Positions 31,845 through 51,594 of a DNA stretch of 64,000 nt are shown piece by piece. Numbering within the stretch: the stretch's first letter is position 1; every line of letters starts with the position of its first letter. The DNA comes from a virus. The notes beneath the pieces are model-generated. The model saw only the letters and a program-made list of their open reading frames with translations, was not told where the DNA came from and searched no databases. The translations under genes and the position numbers were made by a program. The stretch lies in IMG/VR virus record IMGVR_UViG_3300020474_000993; one strand, given 5' to 3'.

Positions 31845-31902
31845 AATCAATGGCTTACGATGGCAGAAAAGTGTTGACTTCTGCTATGAATTGTGCGATC
31901 AT
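31845..31902 (+). promoter_or_regulatory. Early promoter TTGACT-17-(TGc)GATCAT with an upstream IHF-like site AATCAATGGCTTA
   Basis: Same architecture as the promoters at 34410 and 51535. Confidence 0.7.
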
Positions 31903-31930
31903 ATACTTGTAATTGAGATTGAGAGAGAGT

Positions 31931-34360
31931 ATGGACATATCAGATAAATCACTACTTGCGAAACTCCTCGCCACTGAGGATGTTTCGATTGAACATAGGA
32001 ATGTACCTACCGCGTACTTCGATTTGAAGTCTAGGAAGATTGTACTTCCCAATTGGAAGGACATGCCTGATTTCTTGTATGATTTATTGATTGGTCATGA
32101 AGTTGGTCACGCTCTCGTAACTCCCGCTGAAGGTTGGCACTCTGCCTCTTCTAGTAAGGGTGCAAATTTCAAATCATTCTTGAATGTCGTAGAAGATGTT
32201 AGGAATGAGAGACTAGTTAAAATCAGATATCCAGGCTTGGTCAAGTCATTCTATAAGGGATATCAAATGCTTTACAAGAAAGACTTTTTCGGTCTTTCAA
32301 AATTACAAAAGACTCCCCAAGAATTACCACTAATTGATAGAATCAATCTTCACGCTAAGGTTGGTGCTTTCCTTACTCTACAATTCACTGCTGAGGAACA
32401 GGTCATACTTGACAAGTGTTTCGCTGCTGAGACTTGGGATGAGGTTGTCGCCATCGCTGAGGAATTATATGATTTCTCTAAGAATGAAGATGCGATGCAA
32501 GATCTTTTAGAAGAACAAGGCATGGGTATGCCTCAGTTTGGTGAAGATGAAGATGACTTTGACCAAGATGAAAATGGTGAATGGTCAGAGTCACCATATG
32601 GTGAAGAGGAGTCTGAAGAGGGCGACTCTGAGTCTGGTGAAGGTGAAGAGACTGAATCTGTAGAAGGTGAAGAAGGTGACGCTCAGTCTGGTGAAGGTGA
32701 AGAGACTGAAGAAGAAACTGAAGAGACTACTGCTTCTACTGAAGAAGATAAAAATACTGAAGACGCTGCTGAGTCTGGTGATAGACCAGAAGATGGCGAT
32801 ATCATGGAAGGTTCTGAAAATTCTGAGGGGTATAACCCCCATGATTTCGATGACGCGGAACCTAAGTCATTTACCGATGAGGCTTTTAGAGAGAATGAGG
32901 GCAACCTAGTAGAATCTGGCAAGACCAATGGTGTTGTTACTGCTACCATGCCTAAGTTCAAGTCTAAGTACTTTGTTTTCCCAACTACCGATGTTTGGCC
33001 TACTAAAGATTTTGAGTATGTTTGCGGTGGAAGGTATGATAACATTGCTGCTGGTTCTGCTCAAGATGTAGAGAAAGATTTACTTGACGAATTCATGAAA
33101 AGAAACAAGGCGTCAATTAATCAACTAGTTATGCAGTTTGAGATGAAGAAAAAAGCCACCCTACTAAGGAAGGCCAAAATCAATAAAACTGGTAAGTTGA
33201 ATGAAGATAAGTTGTGGGCATACAAGTTGACTGAAGACTTGTTCCTATCAAGTACTACTGTGCCAGATGGTCAGAACCATGGCATGATGATGTTTGTAGA
33301 CTTCTCTGGTTCAATGGGTAGACACATGGCTGGTACTATTGAACAGACACTAATTCAAGTTGCCTTCTGTAAAAAAGTTGGTATCCCATTTGATGTGTAC
33401 GGTTTTTCAAACTGTGCTAACTCTCTCCAAGGTGAGAAGTTCGGAAATGCTTCTAGGGGTTCTGCTTTCCAATCTTGTGAAGAGGGTGAGTTGTTTATTG
33501 AGTCTGGTGGGTTCGCTCTGCTTCAGTTGATATCTTCTGAATTGCCTCAGAGTGAGTACAATAGATGTTTCAAAAAGTTACTTGGTTACAAAACTTCATT
33601 TGAGTGGAGAGATATGAAACCAAGAATGGAAAGATACGATGTACCTTACCATCTTTATCTTGGTTCTACTCCGCTGTCAAGTTGTATGATAGTTGGTGCT
33701 AAGATTGCTAAGAAGTTCAAGGAAAGAAATAGAATTGAGGTTATGAACACAATCGTTCTTTCCGATGGTGGAAACACTTCTGATTTAGAAGTAATCTCGG
33801 ATGGTGAGTATGAAGAGAATGGTAGGTTCAGATATTCAAATGCCATTCAAAAAGAGTTTGGTCATGGATACGGCGAAGAAAGAACTGACATTGGTAAATT
33901 CCAATTGAGAGGCAACGGTCTGTCAGTTACCACTAACATCAAAGGGATGTATGGAACAAACTACGGTAGGGTCAGTTATGAAAGTGCTACTGCTGTTACT
34001 TTTGACTACTACAAAAAGTTTGTCGGTTCCAGAATAGTTCACTTCTTCTTAGTTGATAACAACATTAGAGAAGCGAGACAGGCGTGGACTGATATGACAG
34101 GTGAGTATGCCGAGTATGATGAAAACTTTGCTAAAGAAAAGGCAACTAACTGGAAAAACAATAACTTCATGTCTTGCCAGTCTAAGTTGGGAAGTGATGC
34201 TACCTTCATTCTGAAGGGTGCTAAGTCTCTTAATGAAGAGGCAGAGTTTGAAGTCAGTTCTGATAGTAAGGCTGACATTTTGAGAGGGTTCAAGAAATTC
34301 CAGAAAGGCAAGTCCAATTCCAGACAGTTCTTGAACAGATTTATTGATGAGGTCGCGTAA
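31931..34360 (+). CDS. CobT-like protein: HExxH peptidase-like domain, acidic linker, VWA domain
   Basis: HEVGH, DFSGSM MIDAS, LSDG; paired with the CobS-like ATPase. Confidence 0.85.
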   Translation: MDISDKSLLAKLLATEDVSIEHRNVPTAYFDLKSRKIVLPNWKDMPDFLYDLLIGHEVGHALVTPAEGWHSASSSKGANFKSFLNVVEDVRNERLVKIRYPGLVKSFYKGYQMLYKKDFFGLSKLQKTPQELPLIDRINLHAKVGAFLTLQFTAEEQVILDKCFAAETWDEVVAIAEELYDFSKNEDAMQDLLEEQGMGMPQFGEDEDDFDQDENGEWSESPYGEEESEEGDSESGEGEETESVEGEEGDAQSGEGEETEEETEETTASTEEDKNTEDAAESGDRPEDGDIMEGSENSEGYNPHDFDDAEPKSFTDEAFRENEGNLVESGKTNGVVTATMPKFKSKYFVFPTTDVWPTKDFEYVCGGRYDNIAAGSAQDVEKDLLDEFMKRNKASINQLVMQFEMKKKATLLRKAKINKTGKLNEDKLWAYKLTEDLFLSSTTVPDGQNHGMMMFVDFSGSMGRHMAGTIEQTLIQVAFCKKVGIPFDVYGFSNCANSLQGEKFGNASRGSAFQSCEEGELFIESGGFALLQLISSELPQSEYNRCFKKLLGYKTSFEWRDMKPRMERYDVPYHLYLGSTPLSSCMIVGAKIAKKFKERNRIEVMNTIVLSDGGNTSDLEVISDGEYEENGRFRYSNAIQKEFGHGYGEERTDIGKFQLRGNGLSVTTNIKGMYGTNYGRVSYESATAVTFDYYKKFVGSRIVHFFLVDNNIREARQAWTDMTGEYAEYDENFAKEKATNWKNNNFMSCQSKLGSDATFILKGAKSLNEEAEFEVSSDSKADILRGFKKFQKGKSNSRQFLNRFIDEVA
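32631..32710 (+). repeat. 26-bp direct repeat (32631-32656, 32685-32710) in the acidic linker
   Basis: AGTCTGGTGAAGGTGAAGAGACTGAA twice, 54 nt apart. Confidence 0.85.
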
Positions 34361-34442
34361 GTGGTTGAATTTAAAGGGAAAGAAAATGAAAATAATTTCG
34401 TTTTGGCCCTTGACATTTGCTCCCAAATATGGGATCATGATC
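34358..34442 (+). promoter_or_regulatory. Early promoter TTGACA-17-(TGg)GATCATGATC with an upstream IHF-like site
   Basis: Near-identical to 51483-51567. Confidence 0.75.
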
Positions 34443-34472
34443 AGGTAATTGAGAAAAAGTGAGAGGTAAATT

Positions 34473-35711
34473 ATGAGTGTAAAACAAAAAGAACAGTTCC
34501 TTCAGGCCCTTGCCGATGCGAACAATTCCGCGTCTGCCGTGTTCTCCAAAGCGGAGGCAATGCAGATTGCAAAATCAAGTGGGTTGAAAAATCCCATGTG
34601 GTTTTTTAAAGAGTGTAAAGTTGGTAGAAACCAATTTTCGCCAAACATGGCAACTCTAATGACAGTGGGTAATACTGCTCTCAAACCTGTCGCTGCTGAG
34701 GCGACTGCCCTTGAAGAGTCAGTATCTACCCTAGAACCGATTGAGACAATTCAATCGCAGCCATTAGATTCCAAGATTGTAAAACAGGCAAAACTTGCGG
34801 TGGAAATAGATAACTTAGTTCCAGATTCAGATAGTACTTATGTCCCATTTGGGTTTCATAAAGATTTGGTGAACATCATCAAGTCTGGTATGTTCTATCC
34901 TACATTTATTTGTGGTCTATCTGGTAACGGTAAGACTATGATGGTGGAACAAGTTTGTGCCAAACTCAAGAAAGAAGCTATTAGGGTTAACATCTCTATC
35001 GAAACCGATGAAGATGATTTAATCGGTGGCAATACTCTTGTCGATGGTAATGTTGTTTACAGGGAAGGCCCTGTTCTGACTGCCATGAAGAGGGGTGCGA
35101 TTCTTATCCTAGATGAGATTGATAGGGGTTCTAACAAGTTGATGTGCCTTCAGGCAATCCTTGAAGGGAAACCTTACTTCAATAAAAAGTCTGGTGAGGT
35201 CATCACGCCTGCTACTGGTTTCAATGTGATTGCTACTGCGAACACTAAGGGTCAAGGTTCCGATGACGGTAAGTTCATGGGTGCTCAAGTTCTTGATGAG
35301 GCGTTCCTAGAAAGGTTTGCTATCACGGTTGAACAAGAATATCCATCTAGTGTTCAAGAGAAAAAAATCATTATGAACAAGATGGGTGTCGCTGAGTGTG
35401 TCGATGAAGACTTCGCTGACAAGTTGGTCATGTGGGCTGACATAATCAGAAAGACTTTCTATGAAGGTGGAATCGATGAGTTGGTTTCTACCAGAAGATT
35501 GGAACACATTGTCAAGGCATATGCCATGTTCTCTGATAGACTCAAGGCAATTCAGTTGTGTGTCAATAGGTTTGATACCGACACCAAGACTGCCTTCATT
35601 GACCTTTACACTAAGGTTGATGCTGGTGCCTCTGTTGAAGAGTTGATGGACACTCCTACCGATGGTTCTACTGAAGAAACTTCTGAGGGGAATGACACTT
35701 ATGACTTCTAG
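34473..35711 (+). CDS. CobS-like MoxR-type AAA+ ATPase
   Basis: GLSGNGKT, ILDEID, TANTKG, FLERF, STRRL. Confidence 0.9.
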   Translation: MSVKQKEQFLQALADANNSASAVFSKAEAMQIAKSSGLKNPMWFFKECKVGRNQFSPNMATLMTVGNTALKPVAAEATALEESVSTLEPIETIQSQPLDSKIVKQAKLAVEIDNLVPDSDSTYVPFGFHKDLVNIIKSGMFYPTFICGLSGNGKTMMVEQVCAKLKKEAIRVNISIETDEDDLIGGNTLVDGNVVYREGPVLTAMKRGAILILDEIDRGSNKLMCLQAILEGKPYFNKKSGEVITPATGFNVIATANTKGQGSDDGKFMGAQVLDEAFLERFAITVEQEYPSSVQEKKIIMNKMGVAECVDEDFADKLVMWADIIRKTFYEGGIDELVSTRRLEHIVKAYAMFSDRLKAIQLCVNRFDTDTKTAFIDLYTKVDAGASVEELMDTPTDGSTEETSEGNDTYDF

Positions 35712-35979
35712 TCCAGACTATAAGTATAATGAAGGAGCTCTTATCAAAGAGCTCCAATCTTATATTGATAACACTTATGGTGAACATTATTCACAAAACA
35801 GTTTTCAGGCAACCGAGTTTATTATTGATGGTGGCCATGGTGAAGGGTTTTGTATCGGTAATATTTTGAAGTATGCTCAGAGATATGGCAAGAAAGACGG
35901 TTATAACCGCAAAGATTTAATGAAAGTATTGCACTATGCAATCATCGCCCTCCATGTACACGATTTGGAGCACGATTAA
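35701..35979 (+). CDS. DUF3310-like conserved protein
   Basis: HYS...GFCIGNILKYAQRYGKKDG..RKDL.K..HY. Confidence 0.75.
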   Translation: MTSSPDYKYNEGALIKELQSYIDNTYGEHYSQNSFQATEFIIDGGHGEGFCIGNILKYAQRYGKKDGYNRKDLMKVLHYAIIALHVHDLEHD

Positions 35980-35985
35980 CCAGTT

Positions 35986-36057
35986 TGCCCCCAGCGGGCA
36001 GTCGGGGCTTGATACGCCTCTCTCTTACTCTCTCACAAGAAGTATCAAGTTCCCGAC
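35986..36057 (+). ncRNA. Candidate structured RNA: small GC hairpin plus long stem with a CU-rich loop
   Basis: TGCCC/GGGCA; GTCGGG.CTTGATAC / GTATCAAG..CCCGAC enclosing GCCTCTCTCTTACTCTCTCACAAGAA. Confidence 0.55.
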
Positions 36058-36065
36058 AACTTTAT

Positions 36066-36073
36066 TATAAATA
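36066..36073 (+). promoter_or_regulatory. Late promoter TATAAATA
   Basis: Consensus upstream of 36106. Confidence 0.75.
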
Positions 36074-36105
36074 AGAGAGTAAGAAATAAATTAGAGGAAT
36101 GAACA

Positions 36106-36465
36106 ATGGCATATAGATTAACTTACACTAGTACTCGACCAGACACATCGGCAGATTGGTATTTCTTTTATGAAACCGCTGATGCTGGATTTGAGACTAA
36201 TGCGACACATTTTAGAAACTGGCTTGACGCGAGAAGTGATGTAACTGTTACTTTGACTGTGGCAGAAGATAATCTTTCTTTTAAATGGGAATTAGATTTT
36301 GCTGATGAAGCAGCTTACGATGCATTTGTAGTTGATAGGACTGCCCTGTTTGCAGCTGCTCCTTACAATGGCACTGCCCATTTACAGGAAACAGCTTACT
36401 TGGATTACTTATCTGCTAACAGTATGACTGGCGCTGAGACTCCAGCAGGCGGAGCAGAAGTCTAA
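36106..36465 (+). CDS. Late-expressed acidic hypothetical protein
   Basis: GAGGA RBS, late promoter. Confidence 0.65.
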   Translation: MAYRLTYTSTRPDTSADWYFFYETADAGFETNATHFRNWLDARSDVTVTLTVAEDNLSFKWELDFADEAAYDAFVVDRTALFAAAPYNGTAHLQETAYLDYLSANSMTGAETPAGGAEV

Positions 36466-36479
36466 AGTAAAATAAGGGG

Positions 36480-36509
36480 TTGACATTTGCCCCTAACAAA
36501 TGTTATTAT
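36480..36509 (+). promoter_or_regulatory. sigma70 promoter for gp45 (TTGACA-18-TATTAT, extended TG)
   Basis: Consensus-like. Confidence 0.65.
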
Positions 36510-38753: not shown

Positions 38754-39517
38754 GCAAAATTGTTTTAGTATCTGGTGGATTTGACCCACTACATAAGGGA
38801 CACCTTGACCTATTGAAAGAAGCTAAGAAGATGGGTGACCATCTATCGGTAGGTCTCAATAGCGATGCGTGGTTAACTAGAAAGAAGGGGTCACCGTTCA
38901 TGTCACAATGGGACAGAATGGATATGTTGATGGAATTAGAATGTGTTGACCATGTAGTTCCTTTCAATGATGATGACGATACTGCCAAAGACTTTATAGA
39001 AAAAGCATTAGGCACATGGGGAATAGACCACAAGTTTTTATTTGTGAATGGTGGTGACAGGACAGAAGATAATATTCCAGAGATGGAACTGCGAGAAAAG
39101 TTTTCTCATGCTCATTTAGAATTTGTTTTTGGTGTTGGTGGAGATAAAACTTATTCTAGTAGTTTGGTAAACAATGTAGAAAGAGCTTGGGGTGACTATA
39201 AAGTTATTCACGAGGAACAAACTGCTAAGGTAAAAATATTGAATATTGATATTGGTAAAAGTATTAGTTACCAAAGACATTTTTATCGTGGAGAAATCTG
39301 GCATATCGTAAATGGTATGGCAATGATTAAAACCAGCAAAGGTAGGTTAGAGAATTATACATACGACTACTTGACTTCTGGTCAACACTTTAGTATAATA
39401 CCCTACGAATGGCATCAAGTGACAAATGTGGGTAATGAACCCCTAAAGATAATTGAAATTCAACATGGTTCTTATGTCGAAGAAGATGATATTGAACGCG
39501 AGGAGATAGTTCATTGA
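38750..39517 (+). CDS. Cytidylyl/adenylyltransferase (RfaE-like) fused to a mannose-6-P isomerase-type cupin
   Basis: GGFDPLHKGH, NGGDR; R.WG.Y, SYQRH..R.E.W, IIEIQ.G...EDDI.R. Confidence 0.85.
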   Translation: MSKIVLVSGGFDPLHKGHLDLLKEAKKMGDHLSVGLNSDAWLTRKKGSPFMSQWDRMDMLMELECVDHVVPFNDDDDTAKDFIEKALGTWGIDHKFLFVNGGDRTEDNIPEMELREKFSHAHLEFVFGVGGDKTYSSSLVNNVERAWGDYKVIHEEQTAKVKILNIDIGKSISYQRHFYRGEIWHIVNGMAMIKTSKGRLENYTYDYLTSGQHFSIIPYEWHQVTNVGNEPLKIIEIQHGSYVEEDDIEREEIVH

Positions 39518-39705
39518 AGAAGAAAGGTATTAAGGAAAGACGAATAGTCGCCTTAAAAAATTTGGAGAAGTCAAAGTTTACCCCAAAACAGGTAAAGTCT
39601 GGCAAGTTTGTAAAAGGTAAGCCTGAGATGGTAGACCGTTCTGAAGACAACTGGAACATCAAAAAAGATTACCAGATTGAGGTGCTTAAGAAAAGAGTAC
39701 AGTAA
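39514..39705 (+). CDS. Small basic hypothetical protein
   Basis: Coupled start and stop; Lys-rich. Confidence 0.55.
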   Translation: MKKKGIKERRIVALKNLEKSKFTPKQVKSGKFVKGKPEMVDRSEDNWNIKKDYQIEVLKKRVQ

Positions 39706-39707
39706 TC

Positions 39708-41441
39708 ATGTTTGATTACAATCTAATAGATGAATATCAGATTGAGGTTACTACTTACTGTAACGCCGCTTGTCCTCAATGTCCGAGGAATGTAAACGGT
39801 GGTAAGACTAATCCCTATCTACCAGTTTGTCATTTAGATAGAGATGTAATAGATGTTGCATTTCCTAAGTCCCTAGTAAAGAGACTGAGACAGGTTTTCT
39901 TTTGTGGCAGTTATGGTGACCCTATTATGCATCCAGAGTTCTTGGATATACTCAAGGATTTTAGGAGTAAAAACCCAACTCTGCATCTCTACCTTCACAC
40001 TAACGGAGGAGTCCGTGATATTAAATGGTGGGAAGAGATTGCTGAAGTGCTGGGTGACCATGGCAAAATTGATTTTGGTATTGATGGAATATGGGATACC
40101 AATCATCTTTACCGAAGAAATGTAGATTTTTCTCGCGTGATTGAAAACGCGAAAGCATTTATAAATGCTGGTGGAAAAGCACAATGGAACTATCTGGTAT
40201 ACAAACACAATGAACACCAGATATCAGAAGCAAAAAAGATGTCTGAAGAACTGGGGTTTGATGATATACTGTTTAGGTCAACTGGTAGGTTTATGAACCA
40301 CAAAACTCTTACTGAGTTAGAAAAGTGGCCAGTGCAAAACAGAGATGGTGAAATAGAATATTATTTAGAACCACCCACAGACAAACAGTACCACAATAGT
40401 AGTGTTGAGAATCTACCCAGACTACATGAAGAGTATCCAGATATAAAGGATTACTTCAACGAGACCAAAATAAAATGTGACGCTCTCACTGGAAAGAAAG
40501 TGGCAATTACTGCCGAAGGTTTAGTCTTACCATGTAATTTCTTTGAACACAATCTTTACGACATGAGATTTCATAAAAGAGATTCATTTCCTAGTAGTAA
40601 TGATTATCACTTTGATGAAGATGGCAATAACCAAGTTATGTCTCTTATCAATAGACATAATGGTGATGACCAGAATTTAAACATTCACAGTCAACCATTA
40701 GATAAAATTTTTAAAAGTGAGTTTTGGAAAGAGATTGTATGGTCATGGGAACAAGATATAGGGTGTGGCAAAATATTTGAGTGCGCTATGACTTGTGGAC
40801 AGAAGTTAACTAAAGTATGGGATCAAAATAAAAAGATGAAAGAAACTTATCGATATTATATCACAGGTAACAATCGCGGATTGGGACTAGACTTAGCAAA
40901 ACATTTTAATGGTGATGGATGTTCCAGAAGTACTGGCCAGATGCTTACTGATATTACAACTAAGGTTGGTATTCAAAGAATAGTAGAACAAAGTTTACAC
41001 TATGATGTGTTTATCAATAATGCATTTGATGGCCCGCCAGATGAACCTTGGGGTAATTTCGCTCAAGTAAATTTATTGTTAGCGGTATTTAAGGCATGGA
41101 AAGAAGAAAACAAGTCTGGATATATTTTTAATATCGGAAGTACTGGGGCATTAAGTGCCAGAGTTAGTCATGACAGATATGCAATTGCTAAGGACGCCCT
41201 TGCTACCGCGAGTAGACAATGTTCCAAGGCATTTAAAGATGACCTAGTTAAATTTAAAACTACCTTGATTACGCCAGGCAGATTGGACACACCATTGAGT
41301 AGAGGTAGAGAAACATGGACAGGCAACGGTGTGAAAACGCTTGACATTTGCAAGTTTATAGAGTATACTATGGGCATAGAAAATAATAGTATAATTGAAG
41401 ACATCATTATTGATGTTAATTTGGAGTATGGTAATGAGTGA
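39708..41441 (+). CDS. Radical SAM/SPASM(twitch) enzyme fused to a C-terminal SDR oxidoreductase
   Basis: CNAACPQC, GDP, HTNG; C...PC...C...CG auxiliary cluster; ITGNNRGLG, FINNA, YAIAK. Confidence 0.85.
   Translation: MFDYNLIDEYQIEVTTYCNAACPQCPRNVNGGKTNPYLPVCHLDRDVIDVAFPKSLVKRLRQVFFCGSYGDPIMHPEFLDILKDFRSKNPTLHLYLHTNGGVRDIKWWEEIAEVLGDHGKIDFGIDGIWDTNHLYRRNVDFSRVIENAKAFINAGGKAQWNYLVYKHNEHQISEAKKMSEELGFDDILFRSTGRFMNHKTLTELEKWPVQNRDGEIEYYLEPPTDKQYHNSSVENLPRLHEEYPDIKDYFNETKIKCDALTGKKVAITAEGLVLPCNFFEHNLYDMRFHKRDSFPSSNDYHFDEDGNNQVMSLINRHNGDDQNLNIHSQPLDKIFKSEFWKEIVWSWEQDIGCGKIFECAMTCGQKLTKVWDQNKKMKETYRYYITGNNRGLGLDLAKHFNGDGCSRSTGQMLTDITTKVGIQRIVEQSLHYDVFINNAFDGPPDEPWGNFAQVNLLLAVFKAWKEENKSGYIFNIGSTGALSARVSHDRYAIAKDALATASRQCSKAFKDDLVKFKTTLITPGRLDTPLSRGRETWTGNGVKTLDICKFIEYTMGIENNSIIEDIIIDVNLEYGNE
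41341..41369 (+). promoter_or_regulatory. Internal sigma70 promoter for gp44 (TTGACA-17-TATACT)
   Basis: Near-perfect consensus inside the 3' end of the rSAM-SDR gene. Confidence 0.7.
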
Positions 41442-51498: not shown

Positions 51499-51567
51499 CT
51501 AGGGATTTATTTTCACTTTTTTTCGCTTTGGCCCTTGACATTTGGGGTAAAATATGAGATCATGATC
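51483..51567 (+). promoter_or_regulatory. Early promoter TTGACA-17-(TGa)GATCATGATC with an upstream IHF site
   Basis: TAAGTTGTTGATT is the reverse complement of WATCAANNNNTTR; near-identical to 34410. Confidence 0.75.
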
Positions 51568-51594
51568 ATATAAATTAGAGAAGTGAGAGAAAAT

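Follow-up and report, generated by a model that had tools for sequence, protein, structure and literature searches.

The DNA analysed here (the window, that is the whole stretch of 64 kb) is part of the genome of an uncultured marine T4-like myovirus, for which cyanomyoviruses are the nearest cultured phages, with gp45 identity of only ~41%. Around the hairpin that is the subject of this study the plus strand carries a cobT-like gene (31931–34360), cobS (34473–35711) and a DUF3310 gene (start at 35662 or 35701, end at 35979), the last one before the hairpin, which closes the cobS unit; gene starts were assigned with a simple heuristic caller. The end of the DUF3310 gene is followed by a spacer of 126 nt, an ORF of 119 amino acids (36106–36465, plus strand) and the genes of the sliding clamp gp45, of a peroxiredoxin (Prx) and of a Mom-like protein. 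The 119-aa ORF always stands right after the hairpin element and before gp45, and searches of its protein in Pfam, PHROGs and Atlas gave no family or function. An earlier note on this DNA had described in the spacer a stem with a CU-rich loop, matches of this loop to the leaders of the cobT-like gene, cobS and gene 51595, and a further match in cis, and all of them are present in the sequence at the positions given below.

A metagenome scan and a profile search with the 119-aa protein returned close relatives alone (at least 74% identity), and diverged lineages with cobS 65–80% identical were found via cobS-anchored loci and a covariance model of the close relatives. The synteny is constant across lineages (cobT, cobS, DUF3310, the element, the 119-aa homologue, gp45, Prx), and the 119-aa homologues occupying the same position in diverged lineages are 30–38% identical. 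In L068:5576–6203 (also in L069) the 119-aa gene is present in tandem duplicate, its two homologues being 33% and 28% identical to that of the window. About 1.1 kb of extra DNA separates the DUF3310 gene from the element in L081:2685–3812 and L093:5432–6559, and in this lineage the element has not parted from the 119-aa gene, its match with the cobS leader being retained. The DUF3310 protein of many close relatives (L002:317–380, L005:229–290) has an extra C-terminal tail of ~20 amino acids with the end EDDIPF, similar to the acidic tip at the C-terminus of bacterial SSB proteins; the tail is absent in the window (35970–35979), L001, L003 and L013. The assumption of a different upstream gene in relatives was rejected, as it is the same DUF3310 gene with this extra tail. 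In cultured cyanophages P-SSM2 (L164, 132801–135924) and S-CAM9 (L165, 114123–116360) cobS is also near gp45, the genes between them overlap or abut, and no intergenic element was found. Thus, the element has no cultured system, because tight packing of genes in these two phages leaves no room for it.

The 119-aa gene is preceded on the plus strand by the motif TATAAATA at 36066–36073. It was found in 15 copies in the window, all on the plus strand, against 5.2 expected, and most of them precede genes, so that by copy excess and placement in front of genes it is predicted to be a T4-type late promoter; at this site it is conserved in all lineages. It is abutted by a GA box, AGAGAGUAAGA (36074–36084, plus strand), a perfect 11-nt complement of the loop segment 36023–33, which occupies positions −32 to −22 of the 119-aa gene. 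Further downstream on the same strand are the Shine–Dalgarno sequence (SD) AGAGG at 36093–36097, which can pair with the loop segment CCUCU, and the ATG at 36106. The box as a general feature of late promoters was rejected, being absent at 14/14 other TATAAATA sites. Directly before gp45 there is a strong sigma70-type promoter (TTGACA-18-TATTAT with TG, 11/12) at 36480–36509. Thus, the late 119-aa gene has an early unit on either side, the cobS unit upstream and the one with the sigma70-type gp45 promoter downstream.

Folding of the plus-strand RNA gives a small GC-rich hairpin just 3′ of the DUF3310 stop codon (35986–36000, stem 35986–90/35996–36000), followed by the main hairpin (36001–36057) with the 5′ arm at 36001–36015, the loop at 36016–36041 and the 3′ arm at 36042–36057. 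The main stem of 14–15 bp with a 1×2 internal loop belongs to the centroid fold; the MFE structure of RNAfold pairs the GA box with the loop instead, while the centroid retains the hairpin. The CU-rich loop of the window has 26 nt and the cost of keeping it open is only 0.4–0.7 kcal/mol. According to duplex predictions its pairing core is located on the plus strand at 36017–36033 and consists of the anti-SD segment CCUCU (36017–21) and the anti-box segment UCUUACUCUCU (36023–33), while the 3′ part CUCUCAC, extending to 36036, is complementary to GUGAGAG of early leaders. YUNR U-turn motifs occur in the loops at chance expectation. The hairpin was assigned to RNA of the plus strand, because G-U pairs occur in its stem.

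Among the close relatives (n = 18; 12 distinct sequences) all 14 pairs of the stem are formed in every sequence (100%); three of them show compensatory changes, and G-U intermediates occur. The loop and the GA box are unchanging across the 12 distinct sequences, so that at the depth of the window's clade they show no covariation with each other, and the nucleotides separating the box from the SD are free to vary. In 18 distinct homologues from diverged marine T4-like phages, whose stems are wholly different in sequence, double changes were registered at 19/19 pairs of the two hairpins: 14/14 pairs of the main stem, which is 98% paired there, and 5/5 pairs of the small hairpin, retained at the same place. 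The share of paired cells is 96.7% versus 61% in shuffles and 33–45% with slid partners, in an alignment that was itself fitted to the covariance model. The architecture is constant and includes the small hairpin, a stem of 13–19 bp, a CU-rich loop of 19–32 nt, a U-tract, TATAAATA, the leader and ATG. The element is single-copy per genome, and its attribution to a repeat family was rejected, as no further copies of the loop or the element turned up, either in the window or in the three related genomes searched; a mismatch-tolerant search of the window for the loop motif also gave no excess of copies. Rfam had no match over the whole window at the gathering threshold and only chance-level hits (E 0.15–6) for 35800–36300. 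These data show that the element is a genuine RNA structure kept in evolution; it belongs to the 3′ UTR of the early unit cobT/cobS/DUF3310, where the earlier note had placed its hairpin.

The stem, GC-rich at its base and with a U-tract right behind it, stands downstream of the last gene in the cobS unit, as in intrinsic terminators. Four to eight U residues (often 6–8) stand behind the stem in nearly all lineages, the window's own tail AACUUUAU (36058–36065, plus strand, right after the stem) being weaker. The short loop of intrinsic terminators (about 3–8 nt) is replaced here by 26 nt, and a consensus terminator scan misses the hairpin because of this oversized loop. In our reading it is an intrinsic terminator that adjoins a T4-type late promoter and whose oversized loop has a function of its own, and we infer termination from this arrangement.

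Pairing of the loop with leaders was scored as duplex energy plus opening energies, since pairs between a loop and a distant strand are crossing pairs, for which RNAcofold-type folding is unsuited. For the window and the majority of lineages the bipartite duplex predicted by RNAduplex with the leader of the 119-aa gene is the same: the box, which begins at position 1 behind TATAAATA, is engaged by the 3′ half of the loop and the SD by its 5′ half, with the variable spacer bulging out between them. The loop matches both the GA box and the downstream SD in ~2/3 of lineages, and there, as in the window, the prediction comprises 5 bp on the SD and 8–11 bp on the adjoining box. The 11-nt match that the earlier note had seen at the 5′ end of the late transcript is maintained across lineages and covaries with the loop. 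The compensatory change UUAC:GUAA (window's clade) to UCAC:GUGA was found in L091/L076, and the change of ACUCUCU:AGAGAGU to ACUUCUCU:AGAGAAGU in L084/L090 amounts to four double changes. Compared with permuted lineages, own loop–box pairs are favoured with P 0.0013 for energy and 0.003 for match length, and own loops with the whole downstream leader with P 1e-4, in permutations that ignore phylogeny.

In phage T4 late transcripts start about 6 nt behind the late promoter motif. With a start assumed by this rule at 36079, net pairing of the loop with the leader would fall from −17.1 to −9.3 kcal/mol, as the late mRNA would be without the loop and would keep only about half of the box. The suggestion of the earlier note that the late leader possibly acts as a sponge for the loop is not supported; with such a start, escape from the loop would fit better, because half of the box would be lost from the late mRNA. 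Four lineage groups (L081/L093, L078/L075, L080/L089 and L109) have no GA box, and their downstream pairing is at the level of the SD, 4–6 nt and −5.6 to −8.7 kcal/mol.

The partner found in all lineages is the leader of cobS. In the window its promoter TTGACA-17-GATCAT occupies 34410–34438 (plus strand), the leader extends to 34472, and the predicted pairing site at 34450–34468 on the same strand covers the SD with net energy of −18.3 kcal/mol. The match GUGAGAGGUAA begins at 34459, and in the window itself it is only 7 nt perfect, or 11/12 with a bulge. Perfect matches between the loop and the cobS leader range from 7 to 13 nt with a different solution in each lineage, against a median of 4–5 nt for other genes. 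They include 13 nt in L072 (AUUGAGAGAGAGU), 10 nt in L081, L109 and L111 (GAGAGAGGUC), 10 nt in L091 (GAGAGAGUGA) and 9 nt in L080 and L089 (GAGAGGAGU), while L066 has 18 bp with two bulges. In nearly every lineage the match covers the SD (−8 to −20); the exception is L078, where 11 nt (UAUAGUUAGGA) are perfectly matched further upstream in the leader, and this sequence is not a GA repeat. For own lineages the means are −19.1 kcal/mol and 9.2 nt, and for permuted ones −16.1 kcal/mol and 7.6 nt. The own energy was not reached in any of 20,000 permutations (P < 5e-5), and for match length P was 0.00025–0.0004; these tests ignore phylogenetic non-independence and should be read as ~6–7 independent solutions, not 10–14. 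Control leaders of gp45, Prx and DUF3310 gave −7.5 to −12 kcal/mol, 4–5 nt and no lineage effect (P 0.55, 0.68 and 0.10, respectively). The complementarity is, therefore, of the 3′ UTR–5′ UTR anti-SD type known for icaR: the SD of the own unit is matched, and the match is evolutionarily maintained. Since lineages without the GA box retain matches of 9–11 nt with the cobS leader, this leader appears to be the universal partner and the downstream box an addition.

The same lineages bear on the alternative that the loop serves only to mask the late 119-aa gene in cis and that matches with cobS and cobT are a by-product of GA-rich SDs. In T4 genes e, soc, 49 and I-TevI the translation initiation regions are sequestered on early read-through transcripts by structures with the late promoter inside (PMC3014915). 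The likeness is evident, as the phage is of the T4 type, TATAAATA stands between the inhibitory upstream arm and the SD-bearing downstream arm, and late transcripts would be devoid of the inhibitory arm. Besides this precedent, masking in cis is favoured by the duplex of 11 bp and 5 bp with the late promoter between its arms, by the box that always adjoins TATAAATA and covaries with the loop, by the loss of net pairing with the T4-like start and by the location of the 119-aa gene between the cobS operon and the sigma70-type promoter of gp45. However, all four groups without the box preserve the CU-rich loop and its cobS match, one of these matches being other than a GA repeat, the loop pairs more strongly, and with higher significance, with the cobS leader than with the downstream leader, and the box is situated at the edge of the ribosome footprint, not on the start codon. 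The architecture also differs from the simple local stems of T4: the upstream arm is here carried by the loop of another, covarying hairpin, which makes a pseudoknot topology, the main helix forms on the box with only 5 bp on the SD, and in some lineages the downstream arm is absent altogether. Masking in cis as the sole function thus seems unlikely.

The cobT-like gene shows an effect of the same kind as cobS, yet weaker. Its promoter TTGACT-17-GATCAT and leader occupy 31874–31930 (plus strand), and the predicted pairing site (31905–31930, plus strand) runs to the ATG at 31931 with net energy of −22.2 kcal/mol, the match GAGAGAGUA (31923–31931) abutting this ATG. A perfect match of 11 nt (GAGAGUGAGAG) was found in the cobT leaders of L068/L073, and lineage permutation, again with phylogeny ignored, gave P 0.002 for energy. 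Complementarity of the loop to the initiation regions of cobS and cobT, asserted in the earlier note, is thus matched to the lineage, and the covariation of loop and leaders in related phages that it had proposed to look for is seen for cobS, cobT and the downstream leader.

A third promoter of the same type with the leader of gene 51595 (DUF7717-like) is located at 51535–51594 on the plus strand and contains GUGAGAGA at 51583–51590 (net −16.9 kcal/mol). Promoters TTGAC-N17-GATCAT are only three in the window, those of cobT, cobS and gene 51595. Their −10 box GATCAT (31874–31902, 34410–34438 and 51535–51563), with a second GATC just behind, belongs to the window's clade only, and promoters of cobS and cobT orthologues elsewhere (for example, L068:3900–4000 and L091:1900–2003) have TAAGCT, CATAAT, CATACT or TATAAT. 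Leaders of cobS and cobT behind such non-GATC boxes are still complementary to the loop. Early leaders of the GA type (window 31905–31915, 34446–34455; L044–L059) carry a 5′ motif GUAAUUGAGA just after the −10 box and an SD-proximal (G/U)UGAGAG(A/G), so that the promoter and leader look like a duplicated cassette.

Ranking of leaders by their pairing with the loop was carried out for 72 plus-strand leaders of the window (mean −10.0, sd 4.6 kcal/mol) and for all leaders of three near-complete relatives of 161, 166 and 165 kb. Ranks in the window are 1 for cobT, 2 for the cis site, 4 for cobS and 7 for gene 51595. The 161-kb genome, which belongs to the window's clade, has cobS at rank 6, cobT at 2 and the 51595-like gene at 8 of 200 leaders; the corresponding ranks are 1, 2 and 23 of 206 in the 166-kb genome and 4, 9 and 2 of 210 in the 165-kb genome. 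The leader of a 78-aa gene takes ranks 22, 3 and 10 in the 161-, 166- and 165-kb genomes. The cobS and cobT leaders come out near the top, in line with what the earlier note had expected of early genes. In the three genomes perfect matches of at least 9 nt occur in only 1–3% of leaders, always at −8 to −20, and the leaders of cobT, cobS, the 51595-like and the 78-aa gene recur in the top 26 of ~200. Such recurrence would fit a small regulon, though conserved leaders alone would give the same pattern.

The earlier note had tied this regulon to GATC-class early promoters. Sigma70 promoters of the 161-kb relative fall into a GATC-type and a TATAAT-type class, and the leaders behind them differ. 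Four genes with promoters of the GATC type rank 2, 6, 8 and 9 of 200 there, ten genes with TATAAT-type promoters rank 107–196, and among sigma70 promoters only the GATC-type subset has matching leaders; with all promoters of this genome taken together matching leaders are not enriched (MWU P 0.92). For the window's clade, therefore, the tie holds. In the 166- and 165-kb genomes, however, matching leaders are found behind promoters of the common TATAAT or CATAAT kind (MWU P 0.0045 and 0.00015), so that the link with GATC is clade-specific.

Dinucleotide-preserving shuffles of the loop reached the observed energy in 1.4% of cases for cobT, 3.9% for cobS, 20% for gene 51595, 0.8% for the sum of these three and 0.1% for the cis box. 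Shuffled loops still give −15 to −19 kcal/mol on early leaders, and the match of gene 51595 is no better than this (P 0.20). Much of the loop's affinity is low complexity of the (CU)n:(GA)n type. The earlier note was itself wary of low-complexity GA matches equally good in unrelated leaders. The control leaders of gp45, Prx and DUF3310 show nothing, and GA-rich coding sites of the window pair about as well as the leaders. In the window alone the matches exceed chance only partly, and it is covariation of the stem and of the loop with its partners in relatives that appears decisive.

These estimates also leave some room for an ordinary terminator–promoter junction, whose loop is kept, for instance, as a binding site of a protein (S1, RegA or other phage factor) and whose complementarities are coincidental. 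Pyrimidine-rich single strands are known ligands of ribosomal protein S1, and RegA is encoded in all three related genomes; a search for RegB gave no match, yet the control was silent too, which makes this search uninformative. Good binding of shuffled loops to GA-rich leaders and similar scores of coding GA tracts would be natural for such a junction. Against it, the complementary sequences differ from lineage to lineage with compensatory changes, control leaders have neither strength nor lineage matching, and the 11-nt match of L078 is not of low complexity. A mere junction, therefore, looks quite improbable to us.

Structure, conservation, complementarities and covariation of the element are seen at the level of sequence, and the functional reading that we favour goes beyond them: the loop of the terminator hairpin would act as an anti-leader (anti-SD) switch on translation of the cobT/cobS unit, with partners in trans and in cis that depend on the clade. 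We give this reading a somewhat better than even chance. The CU-rich loop would pair with GA-rich translation-initiation regions and block binding of the 30S subunit. Its core partners would be two SD regions, that of cobS and, with a weaker signal, that of cobT, both located at the 5′ end of the transcripts that the hairpin is supposed to terminate. In this case each finished mRNA, or the 3′ fragment left over from it, may turn off further initiation, which would amount to negative feedback or to a timer. The loop could, in the window's clade, also reach in trans the paralogous GA-type leaders of other early genes with GATC promoters. In ~2/3 of lineages, including the window, it would pair in cis, on read-through RNA, with the GA box and with the SD of the gene that follows, and this late gene would remain silent until transcripts begin at TATAAATA, without the loop and half of the box. 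Both repression and its mode, in cis or in trans, we infer from this arrangement.

The same complementarities could in principle reflect a positive or protective effect, if pairing circularises cobS mRNA and shields it from RNase E or exonucleases, or if the 3′ fragment titrates something, and the sign of the effect is not given by sequence alone. However, the paired segment covers the SD (−8 to −20), and in known cases this blocks initiation (PMC3868564, PMC3014915). Repression is favoured because pairing would occlude the SD, and a protective role is, in our opinion, very unlikely. An element acting as DNA (a cruciform, an H-DNA polypyrimidine tract, a recombination hotspot or an origin) could account for nested inverted repeats, a mirror-like polypyrimidine tract and the stable fold of the minus strand, but it is hardly credible, as the plus-strand stem tolerates G-U and U-G pairs, which are mismatches in DNA or on the other strand, the partner sequences are exactly on SD regions of plus-strand genes, and no minus-strand gene is nearby.

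The nearest known analogue of the anti-SD switch is icaR mRNA of Staphylococcus aureus, where a pyrimidine-rich anti-SD motif of the 3′ UTR pairs with the SD region of its own mRNA (PMC3868564). In both systems the 3′ UTR motif is complementary to the SD of its own mRNA, and action both in cis and in trans is conceivable. The phage motif, however, is in the loop of a terminator-like hairpin, and has 17–20 nt against UCCCCUG of icaR without sequence homology; besides, cobT, other early leaders and the next gene are additional candidates for pairing with it.

Enterobacterial CpxQ and SdhX are 3′ UTR-derived (type II) sRNAs, and c4 antisense RNA of phages P1 and P7 is processed from the transcript it regulates, its loop sequences pairing with sites on the same transcript. 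As in the case considered here, these regulators share a terminator or a transcript with the parent mRNA and pair at ribosome-binding sites. The seed of known 3′ UTR sRNAs usually precedes the terminator stem, so that a seed within the terminator loop distinguishes the phage element from CpxQ and SdhX; c4 differs in being upstream of its target. Hairpins of RNAIII, including its terminator hairpin, carry C-rich loop motifs, and Rsa RNAs of Firmicutes are also regulators with C-rich loops (PMC2790875). There, too, unpaired pyrimidine-rich loops target the SDs of several mRNAs, and the terminator hairpin can bear the seed, but those are stand-alone bacterial sRNAs with UCCC, and here the 3′ UTR of a phage with another host carries (CU)n of unrelated sequence.

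Post-transcriptional control in T4-type phages is known to be exerted by proteins RegA and RegB and by simple local hairpins. According to a review on T4, regulatory RNAs of such a type have not been characterised, and related genomes might supply candidates (PMC3014915). The hairpin element, with ~90 nt, conservation, covariation and co-evolving partner sites, would be such a candidate, and our literature search found no description of one like it. One may go further and propose a phage-encoded anti-SD riboregulator that ends the early programme of marine T4-like phages by means of RNA instead of a nuclease: it would accumulate with early transcription, shut the GA-leader regulon in cis and in trans and silence the adjacent late gene on read-through RNA. 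This wider scheme is tentative, and we hold it for possible rather than probable. The element, if it acts as read here, would extend 3′ UTR–5′ UTR anti-SD control, documented mainly in Staphylococcus, to abundant ocean viruses, and would explain unusual (GA)n leaders on a subset of early genes in these phages. For annotators of marine viromes the element would be a new RNA family, and its explicit partner sites make it directly testable by compensatory-mutation reporters despite the lack of a cultured host.

Two other observations concern sequences adjacent to the element and partners of its loop. In the 165-kb genome with DTR (G005) the two longest matches of the loop, 12 nt on the SD, are outside cobS and cobT and belong to genes of 309 and 373 aa (L162:8439–9368 and L156:18997–20118, i.e. 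G005 148439–149368 and 38997–40118). At the 5′ edge of the element most lineages conserve the sequence UAAC(C)AGUU, which includes the stop codon (35977–35985 in the window); its fit to an RNase E-type site is loose, and, speculatively, it could mark processing of a 3′ fragment.
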